Positions 4,407-20,788 of a stretch of 64,000 bases of DNA are shown piece after piece. The notes below the pieces were generated by a model. That model had not been told where the DNA came from. It did not search any database and saw nothing but the letters and a program-made list of their open reading frames with translations. Numbering within the stretch: the stretch's first letter is position 1; each line of letters begins with the position of its first letter. The stretch is taken from positions 17,975 through 81,974 of the forward strand of contig CAYPYG010000001.1 in the NCBI GenBank assembly GCA_964415175.1, read 5' to 3'. A program made the translations under genes and the position numbers. Source of the DNA: an uncultured Elusimicrobiaceae bacterium (GTDB lineage Bacteria > Elusimicrobiota > Elusimicrobia > Elusimicrobiales > UBA9959).

Positions 4407-4512
4407 TATGGGGCCCGGCGGCTCGCGGGAGATTCAATTATACAATAAAGACCCTTTTTTTATAGAATTAGGGCTCGGGCGGCGGAAAAGCCGCCCCACG
4501 GAGGCGAAACCG

Positions 4513-5643: not shown

Positions 5644-5653
5644 GGCCCGGCCG

Positions 5654-6643
5654 ATGAACTGGCGCGGAAGCAGGGTACTCATAACCGGCGGGAGCGGCTT
5701 CATAGGGAGCCACCTCACGGAAAGGCTGGTCAGGCTGGGGGCCAGGGTGACCGCCCTGCTGGAATACACCCCCTACAACGACCTCGGCGCGCTCAAGCAC
5801 GCGCCGCGGCAGCTGCTCTCGCAGATCGAGTTCGTGCCGGGCGACCTGCGCGACCCGGAGATGGTGAAGAAACTGCTCAGGAAGAAGGACGTGGTCTTCC
5901 ACCTCGGGGCACTGGTGGGGATCCCGTACTCCTACGTGAACCCGCGCGAAGTGTTCGAGGTCAACGCCCTGGGTACGCTCAACGTGCTGCTGGCCGCGCG
6001 CGACGCCGGCGCCAGCAAGGTCGTCACCACCTCCACCTCCGAGGTCTACGGCACCGCCCTCTACACCCCGATAGACGAGAAGCACCCGCTGCAGGCCCAG
6101 TCCCCCTACTCCGCCAGCAAGATAGCGGCCGACAAGATAGCGGAGTCCTTCAACCGCACCTACGGGCTGCCGGTGGCGGTCATACGGCCCTTCAACACCT
6201 ACGGTCCCCGCCAGTCGGACAGGGCGATAATCCCGACCATCATCGCCCAGGCCCTTACGAAGCGGACGGTCAAGCTGGGCGCCCTCGCCCCGCGCAGGGA
6301 CCTCAACTACGTGGCGGACACGGTGGACGGCTTCGTAAAGACCGCCGAATCGCCGCGCGCGGTGGGCAGGGTGATAAACATAGGCACCGGGCGCGATATC
6401 TCCGTCGGGGAGCTGGCGGCCGAGATACTGCGGCTGATGGGCCGCAAGGTCAGGATAGAGACGACGAGCGCGCGGAAGCGCCCGAAGGCCAGCGAGGTGA
6501 TGCAGCTGCTCTGCGACAACTCCCTGGCGGCCGGCCTGATAGGCTGGAAGCCGCGCACCACGCTCGAAAGCGGCCTGAAGCAGACCATCGACTGGATAAA
6601 GTCGCACTCGGAAGGCTACAGCCCGGACAAGTACAATATCTGA
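5654..6643 (+). CDS. NAD-dependent sugar epimerase/dehydratase (extended SDR)
   Basis: VLITGGSGFIGSHL Rossmann motif; YSASK catalytic motif. Confidence 0.85.
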   Translation: MNWRGSRVLITGGSGFIGSHLTERLVRLGARVTALLEYTPYNDLGALKHAPRQLLSQIEFVPGDLRDPEMVKKLLRKKDVVFHLGALVGIPYSYVNPREVFEVNALGTLNVLLAARDAGASKVVTTSTSEVYGTALYTPIDEKHPLQAQSPYSASKIAADKIAESFNRTYGLPVAVIRPFNTYGPRQSDRAIIPTIIAQALTKRTVKLGALAPRRDLNYVADTVDGFVKTAESPRAVGRVINIGTGRDISVGELAAEILRLMGRKVRIETTSARKRPKASEVMQLLCDNSLAAGLIGWKPRTTLESGLKQTIDWIKSHSEGYSPDKYNI

Positions 6644-6665
6644 AGCGGGGGAAAGGGGAACTCGG

Positions 6666-7364
6666 ATGAAAGCGGTCATAATAGCCGGCGGCTGCGGTAC
6701 CAGGCTCCGCCCTTTCACTTTCTCCATACCCAAGCCGCTCCTGCCGGTGGACGAGAAGCCGATACTGGAGCACATGGTCCTCCGCCTCAGGGCGCTGGGA
6801 ATAAAGGACATAATCCTCACCCTCGGTTACGGCGCGGAACTGATAGAGGCCTATTTCGGCGGCGGCAGGAAGTTCGGCGTCAGCATCGGCTACACGAGGG
6901 AGCGCCGCCCTCTCGGCACCGCCGGTCCGCTGAAGCTCATAAAAGGCCTGCGCGAGCCCTTCCTGGTGATGAACGGCGACATCCTCACCCGGCTGGATTT
7001 CAGGAAATTCATGACCGCCCACCGGCGCTCGGGCGCGGACCTGACCATCGCGGCGCGCAAATACTCCGACCGCCTCCCTTTCGGCACGGTCTCGGTCTCC
7101 GGCGGCAGGGTCACCGGCATAACCGAAAAACCCGTGACGGAACATCTCGTCTCGGCCGGCATCTACGCCGTCTCGCCCTGCGCCCTGCGCAGGATCCCCC
7201 GCGAGGGGGCCTTCACCATGCCGGAACTGGTGAACTCGCTGCTGGCCGCCGGCAGGCACGTCGGCATGTACGAATTCTCCGATTACTGGCTGGGGATAGA
7301 GAAGGCGTCCCAGCTGGAGGAAGCGGCGCAGGAGGCGCGCCTCCTGCGCACCCGACCCGGATGA
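6666..7364 (+). CDS. Sugar-phosphate nucleotidyltransferase
   Basis: MKAVIIAGGCGTRLRPFT signature of the NTP_transferase family. Confidence 0.8.
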   Translation: MKAVIIAGGCGTRLRPFTFSIPKPLLPVDEKPILEHMVLRLRALGIKDIILTLGYGAELIEAYFGGGRKFGVSIGYTRERRPLGTAGPLKLIKGLREPFLVMNGDILTRLDFRKFMTAHRRSGADLTIAARKYSDRLPFGTVSVSGGRVTGITEKPVTEHLVSAGIYAVSPCALRRIPREGAFTMPELVNSLLAAGRHVGMYEFSDYWLGIEKASQLEEAAQEARLLRTRPG

Positions 7365-8068
7365 AGCTTTCCGTCATAATCCCCTCCTACAACGAGGCCG
7401 CGACCGTGCGCGAGATCATCGCTCGCGTCCGCCGCGTGCCCGTGGACATGGAGAAGGAGATCATAGTGGTCGACGGCGCCTCTTCCGACGGCACCAGGGA
7501 GGCGCTGCGCGCAGAGGAGGCCGTCCCCGGCACGCGCGTCATATACGAGGAGCGCCGGGAAGGAAAGGGGGCCGCCGTGCGCAAGGGCCTCGAGGCCGCC
7601 ACGGGCGAAATCGCCCTCATACAGGACGCGGACCTGGAGGTCAGTCCCGAGGAATATCCCGCCCTGCTGCGTCCCATCCTGGACGGCGAGAGCGACGTGG
7701 TCTTCGGCTCCCGCTTCCTGGGCGGGGCCAGGTTCAGGACCGCCAGCCTGATAGCCAACCGGGTGATCATCGCCCTGACCAACCTCCTTTACGGCGCCGG
7801 CATGACCGACGTGCTCACCTGCTACAAAGTCTTCAGGCTCAGAACGCTGGAGGGGATGAGGTTCACCTGCAACGGCTTCGATTTCGATACCGAGCTGGCC
7901 GTCAGTCTCATCAGGCGCGGGGTCAGGATAAAGGAGATCCCGATAAGCTACACCCCCCGCACCTACGGCGAGGGCAAGAAGATCAACTGGAAGGACGGCT
8001 TCATGGCGGTCTGGAACGTTATCAGGCTCCGGTTCTCGCGGCGAGCGGGGAAGGCGGGACTTCCATGA
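7361..8068 (+). CDS. Family 2 glycosyltransferase, ArnC/GtrB/DPM1-like
   Basis: MKLSVIIPSYNE...QDADLE...TCYKVFR...EGKKI motifs; ATGA overlap with the upstream gene. Confidence 0.8.
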   Translation: MKLSVIIPSYNEAATVREIIARVRRVPVDMEKEIIVVDGASSDGTREALRAEEAVPGTRVIYEERREGKGAAVRKGLEAATGEIALIQDADLEVSPEEYPALLRPILDGESDVVFGSRFLGGARFRTASLIANRVIIALTNLLYGAGMTDVLTCYKVFRLRTLEGMRFTCNGFDFDTELAVSLIRRGVRIKEIPISYTPRTYGEGKKINWKDGFMAVWNVIRLRFSRRAGKAGLP

Positions 8069-9177
8069 CGAAGAACGCCCCTCCCCCCCCACTCACGCGG
8101 CGAATAGATCTGAACGTGGGCTATTCCTGCAACATCAAGTGCAGTTTCTGCTATTATCTCACCGACGTCAAGGCCCGCGACCGCGACAAGGACCTGACCA
8201 CGGAGCAGTGCAGGACCCTCATCAGGCGCCATTACGCGGAGGGACTTCGCGTGCTGGAGTTCACCGGCGGAGAGCCCACCATACGCCGCGACCTTTTCGA
8301 CCTGGTCCGCTTCGCGAAAGAGACGGGGTTCCCCAGGGTCTCGGTCATCACCAACGGCCTGAGGCTCTCCGACAAGGAATACGCCCGCGGCCTGGCGGCG
8401 GCCGGAGTGGAGGACTTTCTTTTCTCGGTGCACGGCTCCACCGCCGCCCTCCACGATTCCGTGACCAACGTCCCCGGCAGCTTCGACCGGCTCATGAAGG
8501 CCGTACGCAACGCTCAGTCCCTTGGCGCCAAGGTCCGCTGCAACTCGGTCGTCACGGGAGTCAACCTGTCGGATGTGTACGGCAGAGCGCGGCTCTTCCG
8601 GGACCTGGGCATCAAGACCGTCAATTTCATCCTCTTCAACCCCATCCAGCAGCAGACCGAGGGCGCCGACGAAAGCAACTTCCTGCGCTACTCGGACGCG
8701 GCAGCGGAACTGAAGCGGGCCATGACGGACTTCGGGCCGGACTTCGACAAGTTCACGGTCAGGTACCTGCCGTTCTGCCTGATGCCGGGTCTCGAAAGGC
8801 ACGTGCAGAACGTGCCCCAGGTCCATTACGACCACGACGAATGGGACTACTATCACCGGTCCCGAGTGCGCGAACCTCTCTGGAAATGGCTGGGCGGCCT
8901 GCTGGCCGGCGCCGCCGTACTGCCTGGCAAGCGGTTCTGGCTGTCCTGCGGCTGGGACCATTTCTGGCACGCCGCCATACTGCAGGCCCACTCACTGCTC
9001 CACAAACGCATGTTCCCCAAGTGCCGGCGCTGCTCTTTCGCCCGCATCTGCGGCGGGGTCTGGAACGAATACGCCCTCCGCTTCGGGGACTCCGAACTGA
9101 TCTCCGTCCCCGGCCCGGTCCTGGCGGAGCCCTGGCATTTCATGGACGAGTCCCAGCGCGCGGAGACCCGGCGGTGA
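8065..9177 (+). CDS. Radical SAM protein with SPASM/twitch-like C-terminal Cys cluster
   Basis: CNIKCSFC (CxxxCxxC) near the N-terminus; CRRCSFARICGG near the C-terminus; ATGA overlap upstream. Confidence 0.75.
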   Translation: MTKNAPPPPLTRRIDLNVGYSCNIKCSFCYYLTDVKARDRDKDLTTEQCRTLIRRHYAEGLRVLEFTGGEPTIRRDLFDLVRFAKETGFPRVSVITNGLRLSDKEYARGLAAAGVEDFLFSVHGSTAALHDSVTNVPGSFDRLMKAVRNAQSLGAKVRCNSVVTGVNLSDVYGRARLFRDLGIKTVNFILFNPIQQQTEGADESNFLRYSDAAAELKRAMTDFGPDFDKFTVRYLPFCLMPGLERHVQNVPQVHYDHDEWDYYHRSRVREPLWKWLGGLLAGAAVLPGKRFWLSCGWDHFWHAAILQAHSLLHKRMFPKCRRCSFARICGGVWNEYALRFGDSELISVPGPVLAEPWHFMDESQRAETRR

Positions 9178-10133
9178 CCGGCGTCTCGATAGTCATACCG
9201 GCCTACAACGCCGAGAGGACCCTCGCCCGCACGCTCGAAGCCTGCCGCGCGCAGTCCCTGCCCTGCGAGGTGGTCGTCGCCGACGACGGTTCGACCGACT
9301 CCACACCGGCCATAGCGGACCGTTTCGGGGTGAAGTACCTGCGCCAGGAGAACCGCGGCGCGGCCGCGGCCCGCAACCTCGGCTGGCGCGCCGCTTCCGG
9401 CCGCTACGTGCTTTTCACGGATTCGGACTGCGTGCCCGACAGGGACTGGGCCCTGACCCTGGTAAGGCTGCTCGACGAGGGCGCCGGGGCCGCCGGCGGC
9501 ACCTACACGCTGGCCAATCCGGAGAGCCTGACGGCGTCCTGCATCCATTACGAGATCCAGTACCGCCATGCCCGGCTGCCGCGCGAGGTCCGCTACCTCG
9601 GCTCCTTCAGCCTGGGCGCGCCCCGCGAGGTACTCGAAGCCCTGGGGGGTTTCGACGAGTCGTTCCGGATAGCCTGCGGGGAGGACTCCGACCTCACCTA
9701 CCGCATAGCCGCCTCGGGCCGGCGCCTGCTCTTCACGCGCGAGGCCCGCACTGGCCATTTCTTCCCGGAGAGCGCCCTCGGTTTCCTGCGCCAGCAGTTC
9801 TGGCGCGGCTACTGGATAATGAAGCTGGTCGCCAAACACCCCGGGCGCATCGGCAACGACGACTACAGCGGGAAGCGCGACGCCGTGCAGCCGCCGCTCT
9901 TCGCGCTCTCGGCCGTCTCGCTCCCTTTCTGCGCCGCCTTCGGCTGGATGCCGCACTGGCTCGCGCTGAACCTGGCCGCCTTCCTGCTCAACCTGCCGCC
10001 GGCCCTTTTCGCCGTGCGGGCTTCCGGTCAGGCCCGGCTGCTCTGGATGCTCCCCCTGCTCTATCTGCGGGGCTTCTGCTGGGCCGCCGGCTGCGCGGCC
10101 GGAACCGTGAAGTTCATCCTTCTGAAAAAATGA
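9174..10133 (+). CDS. Family 2 glycosyltransferase with C-terminal membrane segment
   Basis: VSIVIPAYNAE...VVADDGSTD...FTDSDC motifs. The GTG start overlaps the upstream stop (GTGA). Only the 3' third of track ORF 8139-10133 is credible. Confidence 0.75.
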   Translation: MTGVSIVIPAYNAERTLARTLEACRAQSLPCEVVVADDGSTDSTPAIADRFGVKYLRQENRGAAAARNLGWRAASGRYVLFTDSDCVPDRDWALTLVRLLDEGAGAAGGTYTLANPESLTASCIHYEIQYRHARLPREVRYLGSFSLGAPREVLEALGGFDESFRIACGEDSDLTYRIAASGRRLLFTREARTGHFFPESALGFLRQQFWRGYWIMKLVAKHPGRIGNDDYSGKRDAVQPPLFALSAVSLPFCAAFGWMPHWLALNLAAFLLNLPPALFAVRASGQARLLWMLPLLYLRGFCWAAGCAAGTVKFILLKK

Positions 10134-11776
10134 AGAACGACCCGCCCCTCAGTTCCTCCTCCGCCGCCCCGGCCGGCGCCTCCGCCCGCGGCCTCGTCTG
10201 GCTCGCCGTCGTCCTCCTGGCCGCGGCGGCGCTGCGCTTCCCGGCCGTCTTCTGGAAGCTGCCCGGCGGGACCACGCAGCTCAACACTTATAACAGCGAC
10301 GAGTACACCATCCTGGTCTCGATACAGGCGATGGACCCGGCCAGGCTCGATTTCAACCCCGTCAGCGAGAAGGACCCGCTGGCCCTGTCCGGCGGCACCT
10401 TCCACACCTATCTCTACGCCGCGGCGCTCAAGGCACTCTCGCTCACGGGCTGGCTGGAACTCACCACCGACAAGGAGTTCTACTATTCCCACCCGGAGGA
10501 ATGGGCCCGTTTCTACATAGCCGGGCGGACCCTCTCCGCCGTTTTCGGCCTCCTGACCATCTGGCTGGTCTACCTGCTGGGCCGCCGGACCTACGGCGGG
10601 ACCGCCGGGATCTTCGCCGCGCTGCTGCTGGCGGTGACGCCCTCCCATATCGTCTACTCGGCCTACATGGTCAAGAACGTCCCGGAGACCTTCTGGGCGG
10701 CCCTCTCGCTGTATTTCCTGTGGAAGGCGGCCGAGTCCGGCGGCGGCCGGGACTTCTTCCTGGGCGGGGCCTGCGCGGGACTGGCCACGGCCACGCGCTT
10801 CTCGTCGGCACCGCTGCTGGCGATGATACCGGCGGCCCTGCTGCTGAGGCCGGCCGGCGAGAGGTCCCCGGGCAAGGCCCTGGGGGCGGCCGGGGCCGCG
10901 CTGCTCTTCTTCCTGGTCACTTCCCCCTACACCATCCTCGACTATCCGAGCTTCATGAAGGGGATCGAACTGATAAAGACCGCGGCCTCCGGGGCCCGCC
11001 ACGCGGACGGCCCCCTGCAGAAGTTGTTCGCCGTCTCGCTCAACGCCGCCGAAGGGTTCGGGGTCCCGGTACTGCTGGCCGTCCTCTCCGGCGCGGGCCT
11101 CGCGGCGAAGGCGCGCACGCGCGCCGACAGGTTCGTCCTGGCCTGGGTGCTGCTGATGTCGCTCATCTTCTTCAAAGCGGGAAGGGAGTCCACGGCCGGG
11201 CGCATTCTCCCGCTCATGCCGCTGGCCGCGCTGCTGGGGGGCCGGTCCCTGGCGGCCGCGCTGCGCCGGCGGCCCGCCGCGGCCTGGCTGGCCCTGGCCC
11301 TGGTCCTGGCCCACGCCGCCGTCTTCAACGCGGAGCACCTGCGGCTGCGCGGGGCCCCGGAGATACGCGACCTTGCCTCCGGGTGGCTGGCGGAGAACCT
11401 CCCGCCGGGAAGCTCCATCGGCCTGGCGCGCGAACCCTCCTGGTTCAGCCCGGGCTTGGTCGAGCGGCATTACCGTCATCCGGACCACGGGCTGCTCAAC
11501 GGCGCCGCCCTCGTTTCCGTCTCTTCCAGCGACTGGGGTTCGAACGGGGACATAGACCTCCTGAAAGAGAAAAGACCCGACTTCGTCCTCCTCTCGGACC
11601 TGGAGGCGGAGTTCATAGGACGGCCCGCCGCTTTCCGGGAGATACTGGACGCCGGCTACTCGGAGGCGGCCTCTTTCTCCAGCTCCTTCTCCCGCGCGGC
11701 GGCCTGGCCGCTGCCCGGGAAACCGACCCCCATACTCTTTACCCCCGGCGAGATCAGGATCTTCCGCAGGGTCTGA
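10130..11776 (+). CDS. Polytopic GT-C glycosyltransferase (ArnT / PMT_2-like)
   Basis: Many TM helices with an ArnT/PMT_2-like N-terminal organisation and a soluble C-terminal domain; ATGA overlap upstream. Confidence 0.65.
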   Translation: MKNDPPLSSSSAAPAGASARGLVWLAVVLLAAAALRFPAVFWKLPGGTTQLNTYNSDEYTILVSIQAMDPARLDFNPVSEKDPLALSGGTFHTYLYAAALKALSLTGWLELTTDKEFYYSHPEEWARFYIAGRTLSAVFGLLTIWLVYLLGRRTYGGTAGIFAALLLAVTPSHIVYSAYMVKNVPETFWAALSLYFLWKAAESGGGRDFFLGGACAGLATATRFSSAPLLAMIPAALLLRPAGERSPGKALGAAGAALLFFLVTSPYTILDYPSFMKGIELIKTAASGARHADGPLQKLFAVSLNAAEGFGVPVLLAVLSGAGLAAKARTRADRFVLAWVLLMSLIFFKAGRESTAGRILPLMPLAALLGGRSLAAALRRRPAAAWLALALVLAHAAVFNAEHLRLRGAPEIRDLASGWLAENLPPGSSIGLAREPSWFSPGLVERHYRHPDHGLLNGAALVSVSSSDWGSNGDIDLLKEKRPDFVLLSDLEAEFIGRPAAFREILDAGYSEAASFSSSFSRAAAWPLPGKPTPILFTPGEIRIFRRV

Positions 11777-11897
11777 CGGCCCGCGGCGCCGGCCTCCCCC
11801 CTCCATCCCTATTTGATACAATCTGTTGTCCGGGACGCGCTTTTTCCGCCGCCGTCCCCGGATACCGCGATGTCGCCGGAACGATGACGGACTCCGA

Positions 11898-13352
11898 ATG
11901 GGCCGCAATAAAAGAATAATTTTCGTAAATCCGCCTCTTTCCATAGAGGACCGCTACGGCGTAAAGCACCAGAGCGGCGGTCAGACACCGCCCCTGGGCC
12001 TGCTGTGCCTGGCCACCATGGCGCGGGAGAAAGGTTTCGACGCTTCGATACTGGACGCGGCCGCGCTGAAACTGGGATACCGGGAGACCGTCGGCGCCAT
12101 ACTGGAACGGGCCCCCGGCTGCGTCGGGATAACCGCGGTCACCATCTCCATAGCTCACGCGGCCGAGCTGGCCGCCCGGCTGAAAAAGGCCGACCCCGGC
12201 CTGGTGGTCATGATAGGGGGTCCCCATCTCACGGCCCTGCCCGCTGAGACCATGGAACGATACCCGCAGTTCGACCTCGGGGTCGTCGGCGAGGCGGACC
12301 ATACCATCGTGGAACTGCTGGAGGCGCTGGAGTCCGGCCGGGACTTCTCGCAGGTGAAGGGCCTCATCCTGCGCACGCCGGCCGGTACGGTCAGGACCGC
12401 GCCGAGGGAGCGCGTCGGGAAAATGGACGAGCTGCCCATGCCGGCCTGGGAACTGCTGCCGGACCTGACGCGGTATTACTGCCCGCCCGTGCATACGCTC
12501 AAGCGGATACCCGCCGCCCTGCTGGTGGCCTCGCGGGGCTGCCCGGGCAAATGCACCTTCTGCGACCGCAGCGTGTTCGGGAACGTCCTGCGGGCCTACA
12601 GCGCGCGCTACACTTTCGAGATGATAAAGGAGCTCTACCACAGGCACGGCGTGCGCGAGATACAGCTCCGCGACGACAATTTCACCGCCTACCGCGGCCG
12701 CACGCTGGAGCTCTGCGCGCTGCTCAGGGAGGCCCGGCTGGACCTGGTCTGGACCTGCGCGGGCAGGGTGGACATGGTTAACCCGGAGCTGCTCCGGGCC
12801 ATGAAGGAGGCCGGCTGCTGGCAGATCTGGTACGGCGTGGAGAGCGGCTCCGACGAGATCCTCGCGCGCATAATGAAGAACACCACCACGCGCCAGGTCC
12901 GCGACGCCGTGCGCATGACCCGCGAAGCCGGCATAAGCCCCTGCGGCTTCTTCATGCTGGGCCATCCCGGCGAAACGCCGGCCACGCTGGAAAGCACCAT
13001 CCGCTTTTCCAGGGAACTGCCCCTGGACGAGGCCCATTTCTCGTTCACGACCCCCTTTCCCGGCTCCTGGCTCTACGATCACGCGGAGGAATACGGGACC
13101 TTCGACAGGGACTGGAGCCGGCTCAACGGCTGGCTGCCCGTTTTCGTGCCGCGCGGGCTGACGGCCGCCGCGCTCGAGGCCGCTTCCAAGCGGGCCTTCC
13201 GCGGCTTCTACTTCCGGCCGAGGATAATCCTGTCCTACCTCCTCAGGATACGCAGCCTCAGGCACGCCGCCATCTATTCCAGGGGATTCATGGCGCTGCT
13301 GGAGTGGCTGTTCAAGAGCAGGCGCCCGGGCAAAGGCGGGGCGCGGGACTGA
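11898..13352 (+). CDS. Cobalamin-binding-domain (class B) radical SAM protein, paralog 1
   Basis: N-terminal B12-binding-like domain; SRGCPGKCTFC cluster motif. ATG 11898 is preferred over the track start 11826. Confidence 0.8.
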   Translation: MGRNKRIIFVNPPLSIEDRYGVKHQSGGQTPPLGLLCLATMAREKGFDASILDAAALKLGYRETVGAILERAPGCVGITAVTISIAHAAELAARLKKADPGLVVMIGGPHLTALPAETMERYPQFDLGVVGEADHTIVELLEALESGRDFSQVKGLILRTPAGTVRTAPRERVGKMDELPMPAWELLPDLTRYYCPPVHTLKRIPAALLVASRGCPGKCTFCDRSVFGNVLRAYSARYTFEMIKELYHRHGVREIQLRDDNFTAYRGRTLELCALLREARLDLVWTCAGRVDMVNPELLRAMKEAGCWQIWYGVESGSDEILARIMKNTTTRQVRDAVRMTREAGISPCGFFMLGHPGETPATLESTIRFSRELPLDEAHFSFTTPFPGSWLYDHAEEYGTFDRDWSRLNGWLPVFVPRGLTAAALEAASKRAFRGFYFRPRIILSYLLRIRSLRHAAIYSRGFMALLEWLFKSRRPGKGGARD

Positions 13353-14774
13353 ATGGCGAAACTCCTCTTCCTCCAGAACATCGAGTACGAGTTCCTCGGT
13401 CCGATGTACATCTCCGCGGCCGTGAAGCGCAGGCACGCCTGCGAGCTGGCGCTGGGCGGCGGGCCCGAGGATTTCTACGCCGTCATGGAGTCGTTCAGGC
13501 CGGACGTGATAGCCTTCTCCATCATGACCGGCTCCCACCGCTGGGCCAGGGAGACGGCGAAAGCGCTGAAAGCCCGGTACCGGACGCTCTCGCTCTTCGG
13601 CGGCGCGCATCCGACCTTCTTCCCCGAGTTCGTCGAGGAGGAAGGCGTCGACGTCATCTGCAGGGGCGAGGGAGAGGACGCCGTCCTGGACCTGCTGGAC
13701 GCGCTGGACGCCGGCAAGGACATCTCCGGCATCGCCAACCTCCACGTGAAGACCGGCGGCGCAGTAACGAGGAACCCGGTGCGGCCGCTGCGCGCCGACC
13801 TCGACGAGTACCCCTTCCCTGACCGCGCGCTCTACCGCGCGCTGGGGGCCGTCGCCGACCGCAGCGTCAGGAACGTCATAACCTCGCGCGGCTGCCCCTT
13901 CCACTGCACCTTCTGCTTCGAGGACAGCATAAGGCTGCTCTACAGCGGCAAGGGCCGGCACGTGCGGGTGAGGGACCAGGACAGGGTGATAGAGGAACTG
14001 CGGGGCCTCAAGGAGGCCGGCGAGGTCCGGACCGTCTATTTCTGCGACGACGTCTTCGGGCTGGACAAGCGCTGGCTTTACGGCTTCCTCGACAGGTACA
14101 AGCGCGAGATAGGCCTCGATTTCCTCTGCCTGGCGCGGGCGGACATAATAAGCGCCAATCCCGATTACGCCCGCCGTCTCAGGGACGCCGGCTGCAGGAG
14201 CGTTTTCTTCGGCATCGAGACCGGCTCGGAGACGCTGCGCAACAAGGTCCTCGGGAAAGGCGTGAAGGACGCCGACATCTACAAGGCCGCCGCGCTGCTG
14301 CACGAAGCCGGCATCACTTTCAGGACCTACAATATCGTCGGGCTGCCGGACGAGACGCTCGAGGACGCCCTCGGGACCATCAGGATGAACGTCCGGATAA
14401 AGGCCGATTACCCCTGGTGCTCCATCTTCTCCCCCTATCCACGCACGGCCCTCACGGCCTACGCCCAGGAGCGGGGCTACCTGGAAAAGGACTTCAGCCC
14501 GGACTCCATCTCCTCCTCCTTCTTCATAGACTCCAGGCTCAGGATGCCGGACATACGCAGGCTCGAGAACCTGCACAAGTTCTTCCAGACCGCCGTGATC
14601 TGGCCCTGGACCCTGCCGCTGGTGAAACTCCTGATAAAACTGCCGCCCAACCCGCTGTTCAACCTATGGTTCGGCGCCGTATATTTTTATATATTCCTAA
14701 AGAGCGAAAAGCGGAGTTTTTTCAGGACCTGCGTCTTCGCGCTCAAGAACTACGGCCACCTCCTGAAAAAATAG
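13353..14774 (+). CDS. Cobalamin-binding-domain (class B) radical SAM protein, paralog 2, with hydrophobic C-terminal tail
   Basis: SRGCPFHCTFC motif; starts 1 nt after the preceding stop. Confidence 0.8.
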   Translation: MAKLLFLQNIEYEFLGPMYISAAVKRRHACELALGGGPEDFYAVMESFRPDVIAFSIMTGSHRWARETAKALKARYRTLSLFGGAHPTFFPEFVEEEGVDVICRGEGEDAVLDLLDALDAGKDISGIANLHVKTGGAVTRNPVRPLRADLDEYPFPDRALYRALGAVADRSVRNVITSRGCPFHCTFCFEDSIRLLYSGKGRHVRVRDQDRVIEELRGLKEAGEVRTVYFCDDVFGLDKRWLYGFLDRYKREIGLDFLCLARADIISANPDYARRLRDAGCRSVFFGIETGSETLRNKVLGKGVKDADIYKAAALLHEAGITFRTYNIVGLPDETLEDALGTIRMNVRIKADYPWCSIFSPYPRTALTAYAQERGYLEKDFSPDSISSSFFIDSRLRMPDIRRLENLHKFFQTAVIWPWTLPLVKLLIKLPPNPLFNLWFGAVYFYIFLKSEKRSFFRTCVFALKNYGHLLKK

Positions 14775-14792
14775 GCGGCGCGGGACCCGGAA

Positions 14793-15962
14793 ATGATGAA
14801 CATAAACCTCCTTAAATTCCTGGACAAGTACGCCGGCCTGCCCCTCTGCCTGCTGCTGACCGTCCTGACCCGCCTGTCCGGCCGGGAAACCCCCTCCCTG
14901 CGCGGGGAGGAGATACGCAAGACGCTGGCCATGAAGTTCTTCGGCATGGGCAGCATACTACTGCTGGCCCCGACCCTGGCGGAGTTCAGGAAGACCTATC
15001 CCGGCTCCAGGCTCGTCTTCCTTACCCTGGGCAGGAACCGGGAGATAAGCCGGGCGCTGGGACTTTTCGACGAGATCGTCACCCTGGACATAGACGGGGG
15101 CTGGGCCGCCTTCGCGGGGTCTTTCGCGTCCGTCATGCGGTACCTCTGGAAGGAACGCTTCGACCTGGTCCTGGACTTCGAGTTCTTCACCCGTTTCTCG
15201 GCGATAGTCTCGTTCTTCACTTTCGCCGGGATCAAGGTGGGCTATCACGCCTGGGAGACCTGGCGGGGCGGCATACACACCATAAGGGTCCCGTTCAACA
15301 GGTACTGGCACATAAGCGACAGCTTTTACGCCCTCGGCACCCACATAGGCCTGCCCAGAAAAGAGAAACTGGAGCCGGTCCGGCCCGTCGTGGACCAGGC
15401 GGACCGCGACGCCGTGAAAGAGCTGCTCGGGGCGGGCGGGGTCTCCGGCGCGTACGTCTGCGCCTATGTCAGCGCGGGGGACCTGAGCGTGGAACGCCGC
15501 TGGCCGGCCGACAGCTTCGCCCGCCTGCTCGGAGGCCTCCTGGAGCGCGGAGGCCCCCCTATCGTACTGACCGGGTCCGGCAAAGAGGTGCCCTATGTCC
15601 GGGAGATGCGCCGCCGGCTGAACGACCCGCGCGTGCTGGACCTCTCCGGCAGGCTTTCCGTCACGCAGCTGGCAGCCCTGCTGGAGGGCGCGGAACTCAT
15701 GATCTCCAACGACGGAGGCCCCCTCCACCTGGCCGCCGCCATGGGGACCCGCACCGTCTCCTTCTTCGGGCCGGAAACGCCGGTCATGTACGGTCCCCTG
15801 GGAGAAGGGCACTCGGTCTTCTTCAAGGGCATAGAGTGCAGCCCGTGCATAAACGTCCACGACCGCAAATCCGTGCGCTGCTACTGGACCGAGCCGAAGT
15901 GCATGCAGGCCATAGACCCGGAAGAAGTCCTCGCAGAGGTCGAAAAAAAACTCGCCAGATGA
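14793..15962 (+). CDS. Family 9 glycosyltransferase (heptosyltransferase-like)
   Basis: C-terminal LSVTQLAALLEGAELMISNDGGPLHLAAAMGTRTVSFFGP is typical of GT9. Confidence 0.8.
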   Translation: MMNINLLKFLDKYAGLPLCLLLTVLTRLSGRETPSLRGEEIRKTLAMKFFGMGSILLLAPTLAEFRKTYPGSRLVFLTLGRNREISRALGLFDEIVTLDIDGGWAAFAGSFASVMRYLWKERFDLVLDFEFFTRFSAIVSFFTFAGIKVGYHAWETWRGGIHTIRVPFNRYWHISDSFYALGTHIGLPRKEKLEPVRPVVDQADRDAVKELLGAGGVSGAYVCAYVSAGDLSVERRWPADSFARLLGGLLERGGPPIVLTGSGKEVPYVREMRRRLNDPRVLDLSGRLSVTQLAALLEGAELMISNDGGPLHLAAAMGTRTVSFFGPETPVMYGPLGEGHSVFFKGIECSPCINVHDRKSVRCYWTEPKCMQAIDPEEVLAEVEKKLAR

Positions 15963-17356
15963 AAAAAGTACTCCTGCTCAACCCTCCCGGCGAACGCCTC
16001 TACATCCGCGACTATTTCTGCAGCAAGGTCTCACAGGCCGACTACCTGACCCACCCGGTGGACTTCGTCGTCCTGAGCGGCATACTGGCCGGCGAGTACG
16101 AGGTCGGGCTCGTCGACGCCATCGCCGAGAAGCTTTCGCCCGAAAGGGCGCTGGAGGCGATACGCCGCTTCGACCCCTTCGCCGTGATCTGCCTGTTCGG
16201 CTCGGTCAGCCTGCCCGAGGACCTGGCCTTCGCGGCCAGGGTACGGTCGGCCTGCCCGGACGCCAGGCTGGTGGGAATAGGCGACGTTTTCCGCGAAGGC
16301 GGCGGCAAATACCTCGGCCCGGCGTCCCCCCTCGACGCCCTGCTCCTCGATTTCGCCGCCCCGGACATCCTCTCCTACCTGAGAGGCGATCCCGCGTCGG
16401 CGGCCAATATGCTGATACGCTCGGGGAGCGAAGTACTTCCTCTCCGGCAGGGGACCCCCGGTCCCCGCTTCGAGATACCGGTGCCCCGCCACGAACTCTT
16501 CTCCGGCCGCGGTTACCGCCACCCTTTCGTCAGGAGCAGGCGCTTCGCCACCGTGCTGACCGATTACGGCTGCCCTTTCCACTGCAGCTTCTGCGTGATG
16601 GGCACGCTGGGCTTCAGGTCCCGCGCGCCGGAGTCCGTCATGGCGGAACTGGAGCATATCAGAAGCCTGGGGATCACCGAGGTGCTCTTCCACACCCAGA
16701 CCTTCGGCGCGCGGAAGGACGAGGCCAGGGAGCTCTGCCGCCTGATGATAAGCGCCGGCCTCGGGCTGGGCTGGACCTGTTTCTCCAGGGTCGACGTGGC
16801 GGACCCGGATCTGCTCTCGCTGATGCGGGAGGCCGGCTGCCATACCGTCATCTTCGGGGTGGAGTCCGGCTCCGACGAGATACTGAAGAAGTACGGCAAG
16901 GGCTACACGCGCGGACAGGTAGTGTCGGCCGTCGATCATTGCGCCGCCATAGGCATAGAGACGGTCGGGACCTTCATCCTGGGCCTCCCGGAAGAGACCC
17001 ACGCCACGATGCGGGAGACCCTGGACCTGCTGCGCGCGATAAAGCTCGATTACGCCTCCATAAACGTGGCGGTCCCGCGGATGGGGACCCCGCTAAGGGA
17101 GGAGGCCATCGCCCACGGGCTGGTGGACGGGGATTTCGCGGTGATGGACCAGTCCGGGGCGGAGGTGGCCATGGGCAGCAGGTCGCTCTCCCGGGAGGAG
17201 ATAGCGGAGTACCGCAGGCGCGCCGTCTCGGCCTTTTATTTCAATACGCGCTATATCCTCAGGCGCCTGGCCCGGGTCAGGTCGCTCTACGATCTGACGC
17301 GCCAGGTGAAGCAGGCCGCCGCCCTGGCGGCCAATACCTGGTTCGGGGAGAAATGA
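15959..17356 (+). CDS. Cobalamin-binding-domain (class B) radical SAM protein, paralog 3
   Basis: DYGCPFHCSFC motif. ATG 15959 overlaps the GT9 stop (ATGA); the track start 15836 is an extension. Confidence 0.8.
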   Translation: MKKVLLLNPPGERLYIRDYFCSKVSQADYLTHPVDFVVLSGILAGEYEVGLVDAIAEKLSPERALEAIRRFDPFAVICLFGSVSLPEDLAFAARVRSACPDARLVGIGDVFREGGGKYLGPASPLDALLLDFAAPDILSYLRGDPASAANMLIRSGSEVLPLRQGTPGPRFEIPVPRHELFSGRGYRHPFVRSRRFATVLTDYGCPFHCSFCVMGTLGFRSRAPESVMAELEHIRSLGITEVLFHTQTFGARKDEARELCRLMISAGLGLGWTCFSRVDVADPDLLSLMREAGCHTVIFGVESGSDEILKKYGKGYTRGQVVSAVDHCAAIGIETVGTFILGLPEETHATMRETLDLLRAIKLDYASINVAVPRMGTPLREEAIAHGLVDGDFAVMDQSGAEVAMGSRSLSREEIAEYRRRAVSAFYFNTRYILRRLARVRSLYDLTRQVKQAAALAANTWFGEK

Positions 17357-17357
17357 G

Positions 17358-18569
17358 ATGAACGCCAGGGCCGGGCTTTACGTCTTCCTCGCCGCGCTGG
17401 CGCTGCGCCTCGGCCTGCTGTTCGGCGCGCCGTCCATACCCGAGGCCTACGAGCGCTTCGACGCCAGGGCCTACGAGGCCGTGGCGGTGAACCTGATGCG
17501 GGGCAACGGCTTCGTCGAGGCGCCGGGCCGCCCCACCGACGGCCGCCCGCCGGTCTATCCCCTGTTCCTGGCCGCGGTCTATTCGGTCACGGGCCACAGC
17601 GAATTCGCCGTGAGGCTGCTACAGTGCTTCATCGACTCGGGCAGCGCCGTCCTCCTCATGACCCTGACCGGCCTTATCTTCCCGCCCGCCGCCGCGCTGG
17701 GGGCGGGACTCCTGGCGGCGGCCTACCCGCCGTTCATACTTTACAGCAACGTGCGCCTGACCGAATGTCTTTTCATGTTCCTTTTCCTCTGGGAATGCCT
17801 GCTGCTGACCAGGGCCTTCAGGGAGGGAGACAACCGCAGGTTCGCCCTGGCCGGCATACTGCACGGCGTCGCCGTCCTCGTCAGGGCGCCGACGCTGCTT
17901 TTCCCCCTCTTCCTGCTGCCCGTCGTGCTCTTCAAACGCTTCCGCGGCCTGCTGAAGGGGTTCGTCCTTTACGCGGTGATAAGCACCGCCCTGATATCCG
18001 TCTGGACGGTGCGCAACTATTACGCCCACGGCGGCTTCCTGGCGGTCAATACCGGCAGCGGCTGGCTGATGTGGTACGCCATACAGGACGACGCCTGGGA
18101 CGGCGACAGGATACGGGAGCTCAGCCCGCTGCGCGAATACCCGGAGCTGGCGGGGCTGCCCCGCCACGAGATGGAGAGCATAGTCGGCAGGAAGGTGATG
18201 AAGTACGCGCTCACCCATCCCGTCGATTATTCGCTGAAACTGGCCCGGAACTTCCGCCGCCTGTGGACCCTCCCGATAGGCAAAGTGATGATCTCCGATA
18301 TCTCACCGCTCTACGGCGCGCTCTACCAGGCGGCCCATTACCTCCTGCTCGCCGCGGCCCTCTGCGGGTTCTTCCTGGTCACGAAGTCGAATATCATCCC
18401 CCTCCTGCCCGCGCTGCTCTACCTGGCCTACGTCTCGCTCATGCACAGCGTGATCCTCGGTACCCCCAGGTACCGCCTGCCCTACGATCACTTCATGCTC
18501 ATGTTCTGCGCCGCCGGGCTGGTCTTCCTCCGCGGCGCCGCCGGGAAACCGAAGGGGACCGCCAGGTGA
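17358..18569 (+). CDS. Polytopic GT-C glycosyltransferase (ArnT / PMT_2-like), second copy
   Basis: About 10 TM helices; N-terminal region resembles ArnT/PMT_2-family enzymes. Confidence 0.65.
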   Translation: MNARAGLYVFLAALALRLGLLFGAPSIPEAYERFDARAYEAVAVNLMRGNGFVEAPGRPTDGRPPVYPLFLAAVYSVTGHSEFAVRLLQCFIDSGSAVLLMTLTGLIFPPAAALGAGLLAAAYPPFILYSNVRLTECLFMFLFLWECLLLTRAFREGDNRRFALAGILHGVAVLVRAPTLLFPLFLLPVVLFKRFRGLLKGFVLYAVISTALISVWTVRNYYAHGGFLAVNTGSGWLMWYAIQDDAWDGDRIRELSPLREYPELAGLPRHEMESIVGRKVMKYALTHPVDYSLKLARNFRRLWTLPIGKVMISDISPLYGALYQAAHYLLLAAALCGFFLVTKSNIIPLLPALLYLAYVSLMHSVILGTPRYRLPYDHFMLMFCAAGLVFLRGAAGKPKGTAR

Positions 18570-19429
18570 ACTGCCCGGTCTGCGGGTCCGGTCCGCTGAA
18601 GAGGGGCCGCGCGCTGGGCGCCGGCTTCCTGCACTCCTGCCTGTCCTGCACCGCGCGCTTCATAAGCCCGCAGCCGACGGACGCGGAGCTCAAGGACATG
18701 TACGGCGAGGGCTATTACGGCTCCTGGGGCCTCTCCGGCGGCGGGGAGCAGGACGCGCTCAAGGCCATGAAGACCGCCACCTTCGGGCTCCGGCTGGACC
18801 TGATCTCCCGTTATAAGACGGCCGGCGACATACTCGACGTGGGCTGCGCCACCGGCTTTTTCATGGAGGCCGCCGAGAAAAGGGGCTTCCGCGCCTACGG
18901 CGTCGAGATCTCCGATTATTCCAGCGCGGCGGCCGCGGCCAAGTTCGGCGCCGGAAGGGTGCACCACGGCGTCCTGGAGGACTGCCCTTTCCCGGAAAAG
19001 AGTTTCGACGCCATCGCGATGTCCGACCTGCTGGAGCACGTGCGGGACCCGCTGCGCACGCTGGCCGCCGCGCGCAGGCTGCTCCGGGACGACGGCATGA
19101 TCATGATAATGACGCCGGACACCGGTTCGCTCACGGCCAGGCTGATGGGCGCGAGATGGACGCACTACAAGCCGGAGCACCTGTTCTACTTCAACAGGCG
19201 CTCCCTCTCGCTGCTGGCGAAGAAGTCCGGCTTCGAGGCCGTGCGCTTCGAGGCCGCCCGGAAGGCGATGAACCTGGAGTACCTGCGCACCCAGTTCGCG
19301 GCTTATCCTCACCCGCTCCTCACCCCGGCCAGCGCCCTCCTGGCGCGGATAACGCCGCGCGGAGCGAGGTCCGGCAATTTTTTCCTGACCATGGGGGAGA
19401 TGACGGCCGTACTGCGGCCCTCGAGCTGA
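18566..19429 (+). CDS. Class I SAM-dependent methyltransferase with N-terminal Cys4 zinc-ribbon-like motif
   Basis: CPVCGS...CLSC motif; ILDVGCATGFF SAM motif I. The GTG start overlaps the upstream stop (GTGA). Confidence 0.75.
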   Translation: MNCPVCGSGPLKRGRALGAGFLHSCLSCTARFISPQPTDAELKDMYGEGYYGSWGLSGGGEQDALKAMKTATFGLRLDLISRYKTAGDILDVGCATGFFMEAAEKRGFRAYGVEISDYSSAAAAAKFGAGRVHHGVLEDCPFPEKSFDAIAMSDLLEHVRDPLRTLAAARRLLRDDGMIMIMTPDTGSLTARLMGARWTHYKPEHLFYFNRRSLSLLAKKSGFEAVRFEAARKAMNLEYLRTQFAAYPHPLLTPASALLARITPRGARSGNFFLTMGEMTAVLRPSS

Positions 19430-19465
19430 AGGACCCGGCGCCGTTCCCGGCGCGAAAATGATAGT

Positions 19466-19474: not shown

Positions 19475-19483
19475 ATCCTCCCG

Positions 19484-20788
19484 ATGATAAGGACCGACAC
19501 GCTGATCATAGGCGGCGGCCTGGCCGGTCTTTCGGCCGCCAGGGAGCTCAGGGGCCGGAAAAAGGTGTTCCTGGCCGAACGCGAGGCGCGTTACGGCGGC
19601 CTGGCCGCGACCATACGCAAAGGCGGCTTCCATTTCGACTATTCCGGGCACCTGCTCCACCTGCGCTGGCCGGAGACGACCAGGCTCATTCTCGGCGCCC
19701 TCGGCTCCAATGTCCGCCGGCTGCGGCGCGACGCGCGCGTCTTCGCGCACGGCCGCTGGACCCCTTTCCCTTTCCAGGCCAATCTCGCCGGCATGCCTCC
19801 CGCGGTGCGTTCGGAGTGCGTGCGGGGTTTCCTGGCGGCCCGCGCGGCCGGCGGCGGCGCGCCCGGCGACGGGAGCGAGACCTTCGAGAAATGGAGCCGC
19901 CGCGTCCTGGGCGACGGCATCTCAAGGCACTTCATGCTGCCCTACAACGCCAAGCTCTGGCAGTACCCGCTGGACCGGCTCACTACCGAATGGTGCGCGC
20001 CTTTCGTGCCGGTCCCTTCCCCCGCCGAGATACTCAAGGGCGCCTACGGCCGGTCCAGGCCCGGCCTGGGCTACAACGCCGTCTTCCACTACCCGCGAAA
20101 GGGAGGCATCGGCGCGCTGGCCGCCGCCCTGGCCCTCGGGACCTCCGGCACGCATCTCGGCATCGAGGTGGAGAAAGTGGACCTGCGCGCCCGGAAAGCC
20201 CGGGTGCGGCACTTCGGGGAGGTCCGTTTCCGCCGGCTCATAAACACGGCGCCGCTCGACGAATTCGTGGCCCTGTGCGCCGACGCGCCGGCCGCCGTGC
20301 GCCGCGCCGCGGCGCGGCTGCGGCGCAACACCGTCTACGTGCTGAACCTGGGCTTCAGGGAACCGGCGCCCGCCATGCACTGGGGCTATTTCCCCGGCGC
20401 GGCCTTCCCCTTCTACCGGGCCGGGGTCTCCGGCAATTTCTCCCCCTTCCTGTCGCCGGCCGGGCGCTCCTCCTTCTACATAGAGATAGCCACCGACGGC
20501 CGCCCGCTGGACCTGGTATCCGCGGAGCGGGCCTGCGTGAAAGGACTGCTGGCCTGCGGGATGCTGAAGGACGCCGGACGGATCGAGGAGCGGCTCTGGC
20601 TCAAGATCCCCTGCGCCTACGTCGTCTACGACGCGGACAGGGCGGCGGCGCTGCCGGTACTGCGCGGCTGGCTCAGGGAGCGGAAGGCCCGCTCCATCGG
20701 CAGGTACGGCGGCTGGAAATATTCCTTCATGGAAGAAAGCGTGAAGGAAGGGCTGGAGGCCGCGCGGGAGATCGCCGCGGGCCTCTGA
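19484..20788 (+). CDS. FAD-dependent oxidoreductase (amine oxidase / UDP-galactopyranose mutase-like superfamily)
   Basis: LIIGGGLAGLSAA dinucleotide-binding motif; C-terminal GRYGGWKY resembles the Glf/amine oxidase family. Confidence 0.7.
   Translation: MIRTDTLIIGGGLAGLSAARELRGRKKVFLAEREARYGGLAATIRKGGFHFDYSGHLLHLRWPETTRLILGALGSNVRRLRRDARVFAHGRWTPFPFQANLAGMPPAVRSECVRGFLAARAAGGGAPGDGSETFEKWSRRVLGDGISRHFMLPYNAKLWQYPLDRLTTEWCAPFVPVPSPAEILKGAYGRSRPGLGYNAVFHYPRKGGIGALAAALALGTSGTHLGIEVEKVDLRARKARVRHFGEVRFRRLINTAPLDEFVALCADAPAAVRRAAARLRRNTVYVLNLGFREPAPAMHWGYFPGAAFPFYRAGVSGNFSPFLSPAGRSSFYIEIATDGRPLDLVSAERACVKGLLACGMLKDAGRIEERLWLKIPCAYVVYDADRAAALPVLRGWLRERKARSIGRYGGWKYSFMEESVKEGLEAAREIAAGL

Follow-up and report, generated by a model that had tools for sequence, protein, structure and literature searches.

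Three genes for radical S-adenosylmethionine (SAM) enzymes, here called rSAM1, rSAM2 and rSAM3, lie around a gene for a GT9-family glycosyltransferase in a stretch of 64,000 nucleotides (nt) of DNA from an uncultured Elusimicrobiaceae bacterium (GenBank assembly GCA_964415175.1, contig CAYPYG010000001.1, positions 17,975 to 81,974 of the forward strand). This whole stretch is hereafter referred to as the window. Judged from their sequences, each of the three proteins is a member of its own widespread and anciently separated family, and the three families recur with GT9 and GT-C glycosyltransferase genes in at least eight phyla. We tentatively propose that these BchE/HpnJ-like enzymes tailor lipid-linked sugars on the cytoplasmic side of a cell-surface glycan pathway, before the sugars are flipped across the membrane and transferred by a GT-C enzyme. 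An earlier note on the same DNA had described the three genes and read them as a triplication inside a cluster of the lipopolysaccharide (LPS) type; its core observation stands, while these two readings need revision. The core of the locus consists of the following genes:

11898..13352, + strand: rSAM1, class B radical SAM enzyme with a B12-binding domain, the motif CPGKCTFC and a basic amphipathic C-terminal tail, 484 residues (Pfam)
13353..14774, + strand: rSAM2, class B radical SAM enzyme with a B12-binding domain, the motif CPFHCTFC and a family-specific aromatic C-terminal domain, 473 residues (Pfam)
14793..15962, + strand: GT9-family glycosyltransferase, 389 residues (PF01075, Glyco_transf_9, 98.9 bits)
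15959..17356, + strand: rSAM3, AprD4-like radical SAM enzyme with the motif CPFHCSFC and a degenerate Rossmann-like N-terminal domain, 465 residues (Pfam and structural model)
17358..18569, + strand: polytopic GT-C glycosyltransferase (PMT_2), 403 residues (PF13231, 59.8 bits; seven hydrophobic segments)

The gene lengths, the CxxxCxxC motifs and the order rSAM-rSAM-GT9-rSAM followed by a GT-C gene, all given in the earlier note, match the open reading frames (ORFs) and the public gene calls.

Three separate radical SAM families

The homology of the three proteins to one another is far beyond chance, with pairwise identities of 28-30% and E-values of 7e-32, 2e-47 and 4e-26. Each of them, however, has full-length orthologues in other phyla that are 50-64% identical to it. 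Because the mutual identity is so much lower than the identity to these orthologues, the three genes are not a local triplication, as had been suggested for this cluster, and a recent triplication was rejected on the same low mutual identity. The orthologues of rSAM1, which are 50-57% identical, are found in Patescibacteria, Nitrospirota and Planctomycetota, and those of rSAM2 in Bacteroidota, Planctomycetota, Calditrichota, Ignavibacteria, Omnitrophota and Desulfobacterota. Orthologues of rSAM3 come mainly from Elusimicrobia and Deltaproteobacteria, with relatives in Bacteroidota that are 36-49% identical. Between Elusimicrobia and marine Flavobacteriia, rSAM2 is about 60% identical, and an alignment of 33 cross-phylum rSAM2 sequences (A1) has a mean column identity of 72%, the C-terminal tail included.

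The Radical_SAM domain (PF04055, cut-off 29.5 bits) was found in all three proteins, with 94.7, 85.0 and 87.8 bits for rSAM1, rSAM2 and rSAM3, respectively. The B12-binding domain (PF02310, cut-off 32.1 bits) was found in rSAM1 (82.4 bits) and in rSAM2 (61.6 bits); the Pfam scan gave no PF02310 match in rSAM3, which by this domain does not group with class B. About a quarter of the rSAM3 orthologues listed carry a precomputed PF02310 match. The N-terminal domain of rSAM3 is Rossmann-like and homologous to that of rSAM1, and the two proteins are homologous from end to end, with an hhalign probability of 100% over 462 columns. The class B architecture described earlier, with a radical SAM barrel after a Rossmann-like N-terminal domain, is thus seen in all three proteins by Pfam, structural models and Foldseek. 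The claim that each also has a B12-binding-like domain holds for rSAM1 and rSAM2, while in rSAM3 the PF02310 hallmark is missing and the homologous Rossmann-like fold is what remains. The sequence motifs differ in the same manner. The segment IGGPHxTA of rSAM1 corresponds to FGGAHPTFF in rSAM2, and the GG(P/A)H (GGxH) element of both is replaced in the rSAM3 family by xGD, within xGD(A/V)(L/F)L, in every phylum examined.

None of the three proteins reached the cut-off of any curated NCBIfam model. In the order rSAM1, rSAM2, rSAM3, the scores were 186.2, 112.0 and 152.1 bits for HpnJ (TIGR03471, cut-off 577.6), which was the first or second curated model for each protein; 180.7, 103.1 and 66.0 bits for BchE (TIGR02026, 481.35); 110.0, 60.5 and 109.0 bits for the diol-dehydratase AprD4 (NF033070, 500); 74.2, 68.5 and 27.9 bits for HpnR (TIGR04367, 650); 122.0, 102.7 and 133.6 bits for the PhpK-type P-methyltransferases (TIGR04479, 600); and 108.1, 80.1 and 87.6 bits for the ladderane-type model TIGR04072 (360). 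All of these values lie below membership. The top matches of rSAM1 were ApyD (198.6 bits, cut-off 750), HpnJ and BchE, each far under its cut-off, and the Tes model (NF045702, cut-off 450) matched only a fourth radical SAM protein of the window, rSAM0, also below membership at 66.6 bits. In the Protein Data Bank (PDB), the relatives detected by sequence are distant and include AprD4, MgmA (9ccb), TokK, OxsB and TsrM, of which AprD4 and MgmA, a glutamine methylase of methyl-coenzyme M reductase (MCR), are closest. Assignment to a known orthologous group was therefore rejected for each of the three, and the possibility, raised in the earlier note, that all three belong to one well-characterised group did not hold.

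The AlphaFold models of rSAM2 and rSAM3 have predicted local distance difference test (pLDDT) values of 90.3 and 90.7, respectively. The top Foldseek matches of the rSAM2 model are MgmA, which ranks first, OxsB, CysS, TsrM, AprD4 and TokK, and all of these except AprD4 are among the cobalamin-binding matches. The rSAM3 model matches AprD4 best (6fd2), with a TM-score of 0.75-0.80 and 24% identity, and AprD4 is also the best PDB sequence match of rSAM3, over residues 26-396. AprD4 catalyses a dehydration of an aminoglycoside sugar, according to the title of 6fd2, and binds no cobalamin (PMC12931638). With the B12-domain hallmarks kept in their sequences, rSAM1 and rSAM2 are probably cobalamin-dependent. 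The use of cobalamin by all three enzymes is doubtful in the case of rSAM3, which lacks PF02310, has xGD in place of GGxH and resembles a cobalamin-independent enzyme; with the hallmarks lost, it probably works without the cofactor.

Several known enzymes are useful for comparison. HpnJ has the same succession of a B12-like domain and a radical SAM barrel, but none of the three proteins is its orthologue, hopanoid genes are absent here, and the partners are GT9 and GT-C proteins instead of HpnI and HpnK. HpnJ and the archaeal calditol synthase Cds have been proposed to ring-contract lipid-linked sugars, and the proposed substrate of HpnJ is a lipid-linked amino sugar that is made by the GT2 enzyme HpnI and rearranged to a cyclitol ether (PMC13459092). 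AprD4 shares the Rossmann-like N-terminal domain with rSAM3 and acts on a sugar. The likeness of the folds is strong, yet it does not amount to membership, since rSAM3 scores 109 bits against the 500 of the AprD4 model. AprD4 moreover belongs to an actinomycete antibiotic (apramycin) pathway in which it is paired with the reductase AprD3, whereas no equivalent reductase adjoins rSAM3. The cluster motif of AprD4 is non-canonical, in contrast to the canonical CxxxCxxC of rSAM3. BchE belongs to the same broad BchE/HpnJ-like branch, but its scores are far below the cut-off and the window locus has no photosynthesis context. Public annotations often name these proteins 'BchE' or 'YgiQ'; by the scores above, the name 'BchE' is an over-annotation. 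GenK, GenD1, Fms7 and MoeK5 are cobalamin-dependent radical SAM enzymes that alter unactivated carbons of sugars (PMC12931638). They differ in belonging to actinomycete antibiotic pathways with no association with GT9 or GT-C, and the comparison was by description only. MoeK5 acts on a phosphoglycolipid (moenomycin), which would parallel the lipid-linked substrate proposed here.

The C-terminal tails noted earlier are present in all three proteins and have an amphipathic, aromatic character. Their hydropathy is too low for a membrane-spanning segment, with Kyte-Doolittle maxima over 19 residues of 1.38-1.58, and a role of the tails as transmembrane anchors was rejected. Among 1.84 billion representative proteins, the tail of rSAM2 occurs in 114 representative clusters, always at the C-terminus of proteins of about 470 residues or of fragments. 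It is confined to the rSAM2 family, and the idea that it is a module shared with other proteins was dropped.

Recurring gene neighbourhoods

A profile of rSAM2 was used to scan one genome per species, which gave 74 loci that were annotated by searches seeded with the proteins of the window. Thirty-eight of these loci are well flanked, having 5 kb or more of sequence on either side. Of the 38, 32 have a GT9 gene no more than 10 kb away from the rSAM2 orthologue, 25 have a GT-C gene of the PMT_2 or GT87 family, and 34 have a gene for a GT-C or other large polytopic protein. Co-occurrence with GT9 and GT-C genes across genomes, a check suggested in the earlier note, was thus seen in most of these loci. 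Twenty-nine of them contain one or more further class B radical SAM genes, 24 an rSAM3-like gene and 27 a methyltransferase gene. The rSAM2 protein stays 55-60% identical while its GT-C partner is PMT_2, GT87, YfhO or DUF2079.

The core genes of Bacteroidota overlap and have the order GT9-rSAM3-GT87-rSAM2, and the module often lies beside genes for ADP-heptose synthesis (GmhA, HldE, GmhB and HldD-like) and a Wzx flippase gene. A deltaproteobacterial metagenome-assembled genome (MAG) encodes orthologues of rSAM1, rSAM2 and rSAM3 that are 55%, 46% and 49% identical to those of the window, in a locus that also has a GT9, a methyltransferase, a GT2 and two PMT_2 genes; the order of the genes differs from that in the window. 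The nucleotide-sugar genes vary between loci, being Leg-like in the window, of the ADP-heptose type in Tenacibaculum and of the GDP-heptose type in locus L010, beside an rSAM1 orthologue.

The rSAM1 family was followed in a metagenome scan that gave 68 loci, of which 45 were evaluable for adjacency and 19 had at least 5 kb on both sides. A small GT2 gene is directly upstream of rSAM1 in 16 of the 45 evaluable loci, and a GT-C gene is directly downstream in 13; a GT2 gene is present in 16 of the 19 well-flanked loci. In Patescibacteria the rSAM1 family recurs with GT2, GT-C and GT9 genes, and nearly contiguous genes in the order GT2-rSAM1-PMT_2 are found. In three Patescibacteria contigs, the gene directly after GT2-rSAM1 is a single ORF of 862 residues that encodes both a PMT_2 GT-C enzyme (residues ~21-475) and a radical SAM/SPASM domain, the latter with its CxxxCxxC at residue 537:

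L089, 11452-14016: PMT_2~radical SAM fusion ORF
L120 and L125, 9425-12010: PMT_2~radical SAM fusion ORF

Across loci, three kinds of partner stay constant: a glycosyltransferase of the cytoplasm, radical SAM enzymes in numbers from one to several, and a membrane enzyme of the GT-C type.

Some further observations were made in these neighbourhoods. Polytopic proteins flank rSAM2 and GT9 in two loci where PMT_2 and GT87 are absent, namely L031 (6644-9034 and 13455-15182; DUF2079 and a DUF6798-containing protein) and L083 (6111-8657; YfhO-like), and DUF2079 and DUF6798 may be further partners of the GT-C type. The Patescibacteria glycan locus L089 also encodes a protein of 719 residues (5342-7501) in which a B12-binding radical SAM enzyme is fused to a class I SAM methyltransferase. 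Next to the radical SAM/GT9 module, genes for a carbamoyltransferase and a DUF5989 protein were seen in Tenacibaculum (L012, 18123-20434, - strand) and in the deltaproteobacterial MAG (L014, 1-2028, + strand); a faint SxtJ-like match was also seen in the former, and a GDSL lipase gene lies between the two genes in the latter. Literature searches on carbamoyltransferase, DUF5989 and SxtJ returned mentions in saxitoxin clusters only. In Tenacibaculum retecalamus (L012, 7344-8761), the rSAM3-like gene is divided into two ORFs that match residues 2-154 and 150-446 of rSAM3, which we take as a frameshift or a pseudogene.

Lipid-linked sugars as the possible substrate

GT-C enzymes take their sugar from polyprenyl-phosphate (lipid-phosphate) donors. 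Together with the constant partners and the GT-C~radical SAM fusion, this is the basis of our proposal of lipid-linked sugars as the substrates of the radical SAM enzymes. In the fusion, the radical SAM domain must be cytoplasmic, and radical chemistry would therefore take place at the cytoplasmic face of an enzyme that later uses a lipid-linked sugar. Action on sugars or on lipid-linked substrates is also a feature of the closest curated families, as described for AprD4 and proposed for HpnJ and, beside it, for Cds, which by analogy would favour the proposal.

The pathway would proceed in four steps. In the first, a cytoplasmic glycosyltransferase, the small GT2 in one sub-module and GT9 in the other, would join a sugar to a lipid carrier of the membrane, for which polyprenyl phosphate is the most likely candidate. 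The amphipathic tails would hold the radical SAM enzymes at the membrane surface, where these would then alter the lipid-linked sugar by radical chemistry. The altered lipid-linked sugar would be flipped across the membrane, and the adjacent GT-C enzyme would transfer the product to an acceptor outside the cytoplasm. For rSAM1 and rSAM2 the chemistry might be a C-methylation or a rearrangement of the carbon skeleton, and for rSAM3 a reaction of the dehydration or rearrangement type, probably free of cobalamin. Polyprenyl-phosphate sugar carriers are the products of small GT2 enzymes such as those of the AglJ, DPM1, ArnC or PpgS type, a type with which the weak NCBIfam matches of the small GT2 of the window to AglJ, ArnC and PpgS agree.

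The logic of this route resembles that of ArnD in the Arn pathway, while the chemistry resembles that proposed for HpnJ and Cds. In the Arn (ArnC/ArnD/ArnT) and Gtr (GtrA/GtrB/GtrC) systems, a small GT2 enzyme likewise makes a polyprenyl-phosphate sugar that a GT-C enzyme transfers outside the cytoplasm, and in the Arn system the sugar may be tailored on the lipid by ArnD, in parallel to the proposed radical SAM step. The ArnC and ArnT models weakly match the GT2 and GT-C proteins of the window, with all Arn scores far below cut-off. The systems differ in that the tailoring enzymes here are radical SAM proteins, up to four per locus, that GT9 is part of the core, and that no ArnD or GtrA homologue was seen in the window locus.

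Several points weigh against the tailoring of lipid-linked sugars. The radical SAM domain of the fusion is of the rSAM0-like type without B12 domain and does not correspond to rSAM1, rSAM2 or rSAM3. We know of GT9 enzymes that act on lipid A-core or on proteins, and of none that acts on polyprenyl phosphate. The association of the three proteins with the membrane is one that we infer, as none of them has a true membrane-spanning segment, and no characterised orthologue points to the putative substrate, which is drawn from gene context. Some loci have a Wzx-type flippase and a PglC-like initiating transferase, and these would fit equally well with the tailoring of an oligosaccharide linked to polyprenyl diphosphate. 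ADP-heptose or another universal soluble substrate would likewise be compatible with the extreme degree to which rSAM2 is conserved. Lastly, rSAM2 stands alone in unrelated contexts in four of the 38 well-flanked loci. Two of these solitary genes lie in L043 (9202-14904), next to genes for a DUF3298/PdaC protein and a CotH protein with a type IX secretion tail, and in L066 (7616-13509), next to genes for a pyridoxal phosphate (PLP) enzyme and an FtsJ methyltransferase; neither context gave a functional clue.

The alternative that survives best is that the substrates are soluble nucleotide sugars, such as ADP- or GDP-heptose or a nucleoside diphosphate (NDP)-amino-dideoxyhexose from the upstream genes, and that the GT9, GT2 and GT-C enzymes merely deliver the modified sugar. 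An invariant small molecule would suit the column identity of rSAM2 across phyla; heptose genes do adjoin the module, those for ADP-heptose in Bacteroidota and those for GDP-heptose beside the rSAM1 orthologue of L010; and a soluble pseudodisaccharide is the substrate of AprD4, to which rSAM3 is closest among solved structures. The nucleotide-sugar genes, however, change from locus to locus while the radical SAM families remain, so that the constant feature would appear to be a lipid-linked route and not one nucleotide sugar. GT9 and membrane-bound proteins of the GT-C type are the partners that vary least, and the GT-C~radical SAM fusion is hard to reconcile with a soluble substrate. We consider soluble substrates rather unlikely.

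Modification of LPS itself, either of a core sugar added by GT9 or of a lipid A acyl chain, as a lineage-specific decoration, was the view of the earlier note, and we regard it as improbable. The window also encodes LptF and LptG, which point to a diderm host with LPS export, and GT9 is the heptosyltransferase family. Elsewhere, GT-C enzymes of the PMT_2/ArnT type decorate lipid A; the GT-C protein of 548 residues in the window matches the ArnT model with E = 2e-4, and the pairing of a small GT2 with a GT-C enzyme recalls the Arn pathway. Against this, the GT9 protein of the window is below every curated heptosyltransferase cut-off, with 56.2 bits for HepI (cut-off 185.3), 76.1 for HepII (134.6) and 85.9 for HepIII (170.2). 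By its sequence it can be placed in the family through Pfam alone, and is not assignable to LPS heptosyltransferase I, II or III. Patescibacteria are not known to have LPS, and yet rSAM1 orthologues occur there with GT2, GT-C and GT9 genes. The description of the cluster as LPS-type is not supported by these results. No enzymes for acyl chains are encoded at the locus, and acyl-chain modification is without support; the glycan-assembly setting of the three genes is borne out by the content of the locus, and the sequential modification of a sugar is plausible.

It is very unlikely that the chain of the lipid, whether polyprenyl, another isoprenoid or alkyl, is methylated, cyclised or cross-linked, as is done by HpnP/HpnR, GrsA/B and the tetraether synthases. 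Many class B radical SAM enzymes do act on inert lipid carbons (PMC13459092), weak TIGR04072 matches of 80-108 bits were obtained, and the tails are hydrophobic and aromatic. These matches are nevertheless far from the cut-off of 360 bits, as are those to HpnR (28-74 against 650), the Tes model matches rSAM0 only, and the recurring partners are glycosyltransferase and sugar-nucleotide genes, with no recurring genes for lipid biosynthesis. The maturation of a peptide or protein, by C-methylation or cross-linking as in ribosomally synthesized and post-translationally modified peptides (RiPPs), with glycosylation of the same product thereafter, has very little to recommend it: the best NCBIfam match of rSAM1 is the RiPP enzyme ApyD, weak matches to RiPP C-methyltransferase and MCR glutamine methylase models occur and MgmA is the top structural match of rSAM2, but none of these model scores comes near its cut-off (198.6 against 750 for ApyD), genes for glycan assembly are the consistent partners, and no precursor-peptide, protease or exporter genes are among the recurring neighbours, with no dedicated search for short ORFs made.

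The tailoring of lipid-linked sugars could also be stated more broadly, as an undescribed and widespread route in which polyprenyl-phosphate-linked sugars are rebuilt by radical chemistry before GT-C export to the cell surface; we hold this wider form to be a speculative one, on the unlikely side. The rebuilding might be a C-methylation, a deoxygenation or the rearrangement of the ring to a carbocycle, as proposed for HpnJ and Cds, and the carrier-linked sugars could include heptose that GT9 loads onto a lipid carrier rather than onto LPS.

The window locus and the place of the system

In the window, the core genes belong to a single tightly packed run at 4390-20788 (+ strand), as defined by the ORF list, Pfam and gene calls. 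Public contigs with identical sequence have independent gene calls that match the ORFs of the window, and public Elusimicrobia contigs carry the locus gene for gene. Judged by the names of its homologues, the window belongs to Elusimicrobiota/Elusimicrobiales. From 4390 the order is aminotransferase, 4,6-dehydratase, nucleotidyltransferase, small GT2, rSAM0, GT2 and GT-C (548 residues); after a gap of 121 nt it continues with rSAM1, rSAM2, GT9, rSAM3, GT-C (403 residues), methyltransferase and flavin adenine dinucleotide (FAD) oxidoreductase. In addition to the core genes listed at the beginning, the features are:

2641..4370, - strand: WecA-like phosphoglycosyl transferase (346 residues) and small GT2 (229 residues), divergent (Glycos_transf_4, 103 bits)
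4390..7364, + strand: PseC/LegC-like aminotransferase, LegB-like 4,6-dehydratase and sugar-1-phosphate nucleotidyltransferase (DegT 396, GDP_Man_Dehyd 228 and NTP_transferase 121 bits)
7361..8068, + strand: small GT2 of the polyprenyl-phosphate sugar synthase type, 235 residues (PF00535, 105 bits)
8065..9177, + strand: rSAM0, fourth radical SAM enzyme, without B12 domain and with a C-terminal cysteine cluster, 370 residues (PF04055, 84.8 bits)
9174..10133, + strand: GT2 glycosyltransferase with a hydrophobic C-terminal region, 319 residues (PF00535, 117 bits)
10130..11776, + strand: GT-C glycosyltransferase (PMT_2/PMT), 548 residues (PF13231 65.9 and PF02366 34.2 bits; six hydrophobic segments)
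11814..11822, + strand: TGATACAAT, possible extended -10 promoter element in the 121-nt gap 5' of rSAM1 (read in the sequence)
18566..19429, + strand: class I SAM methyltransferase with an N-terminal zinc-ribbon-like CxxC pair, 287 residues (Methyltransf_23, 97 bits)
19484..20788, + strand: FAD-dependent amine-oxidase-like oxidoreductase at the end of the locus, 434 residues (PF01593, 59.4 bits)

The two divergent proteins at 2641..4370 gave 113 bits for the WecA model and 106 bits for the AglJ model, both under the NCBIfam cut-off. At the head of the run, the proteins of 4390..7364 gave 404.5 bits for LegB (cut-off 475) and 243.7 bits for PseC, and these genes suggest the joint synthesis of a sugar of the NDP-4-amino-4,6-dideoxy-hexosamine type. 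The small GT2 of 235 residues matched AglJ, dolichyl-phosphate hexose transferase, ArnC and PpgS below cut-off, and in Patescibacteria its orthologues, 38-44% identical, lie directly upstream of the rSAM1 orthologues. The gene for rSAM0, which was outside the finding of the earlier note, is placed between two GT2 genes. Its top NCBIfam matches are HxsC4 and MoaA, both below cut-off, and it is a homologue (26-27% identity) of the domain that is fused to the PMT_2 GT-C enzyme in Patescibacteria. The GT2 of 319 residues matched MftF and EpsD below cut-off and has one hydrophobic segment, at residues 263-281. The GT-C protein of 403 residues comes after rSAM3 in all the Elusimicrobia relatives. 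The methyltransferase has a 41% identical orthologue in L014, and the FAD oxidoreductase, which is kept in close relatives only, gave about 124 bits, below cut-off, for PRK07208-type 'hypothetical protein' models.

The junction of rSAM1 and rSAM2 is 0 nt, that of rSAM2 and GT9 is 18 nt, GT9 and rSAM3 overlap by 4 nt, rSAM3 and GT-C are separated by 1 nt, and GT-C and the methyltransferase overlap by 4 nt. The junctions of 0-4 nt that had been reported are thus correct for all but rSAM2/GT9. The box TGATACAAT, which had also been reported, is present at its position. It is kept in two related Elusimicrobia genomes (L015 and L059) while the neighbouring bases drift, and this conservation lends weak support to a putative promoter element. 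A sigma-70 scan did not report TGATACAAT, because no -35 match accompanies it, and the counts of the sigma-70 and terminator scan over 4000-21000 were not above those of shuffled controls. Elsewhere in the window, two ORFs of 808 and 1039 residues near LptF/LptG (36857-39286 and 39611-42733, - strand) had no Pfam match at E <= 1e-5, and the sole Rfam matches were tRNA-Val(TAC) at 50639-50713 and tRNA-Asp(GTC) at 52782-52858 (+ strand).

Literature searches that combined radical SAM with GT-C, polyprenyl or undecaprenyl phosphate, GT9, heptosyltransferase or Elusimicrobia found no description of such a module. Two reviews from 2026, on B12-dependent (PMC12931638) and on lipid-modifying (PMC13459092) radical SAM enzymes, do not mention it. 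The earlier note, which was not aware of a characterised system with this architecture, is thus in agreement with NCBIfam at cut-off, the searchable literature and these reviews. The heavily methylated O-glycan of the S-layer of Kuenenia (anammox) was considered as a product and dropped, as the paper gives no gene cluster and no link to radical SAM enzymes. The three proteins would represent new subfamilies of a known superfamily, and their conserved pairing with GT9 and GT-C a new variant at the level of the system. To our knowledge, class B radical SAM enzymes come mainly from antibiotic, cofactor and lipid pathways, and none has been tied to the general assembly of bacterial surface glycans.

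The labels 'BchE' and 'YgiQ', which these proteins widely carry in public annotation, are corrected by the analysis. Several of the carriers are cultured, namely Tenacibaculum xiamenense, T. retecalamus, Aurantibacter aestuarii, Spongiimicrobium salis and Aquimarina algiphila, and the question is therefore open to direct testing by genetics and by mass spectrometry of glycans and lipids. The conservation seen here would imply a common, still uncharacterised modification of sugars on bacterial surfaces, including those of Patescibacteria, whose envelopes are poorly understood. If the proposed tailoring of lipid-linked sugars is true, there would be a new class of modified sugars common to Elusimicrobia, Patescibacteria, Bacteroidota, Planctomycetota and others.

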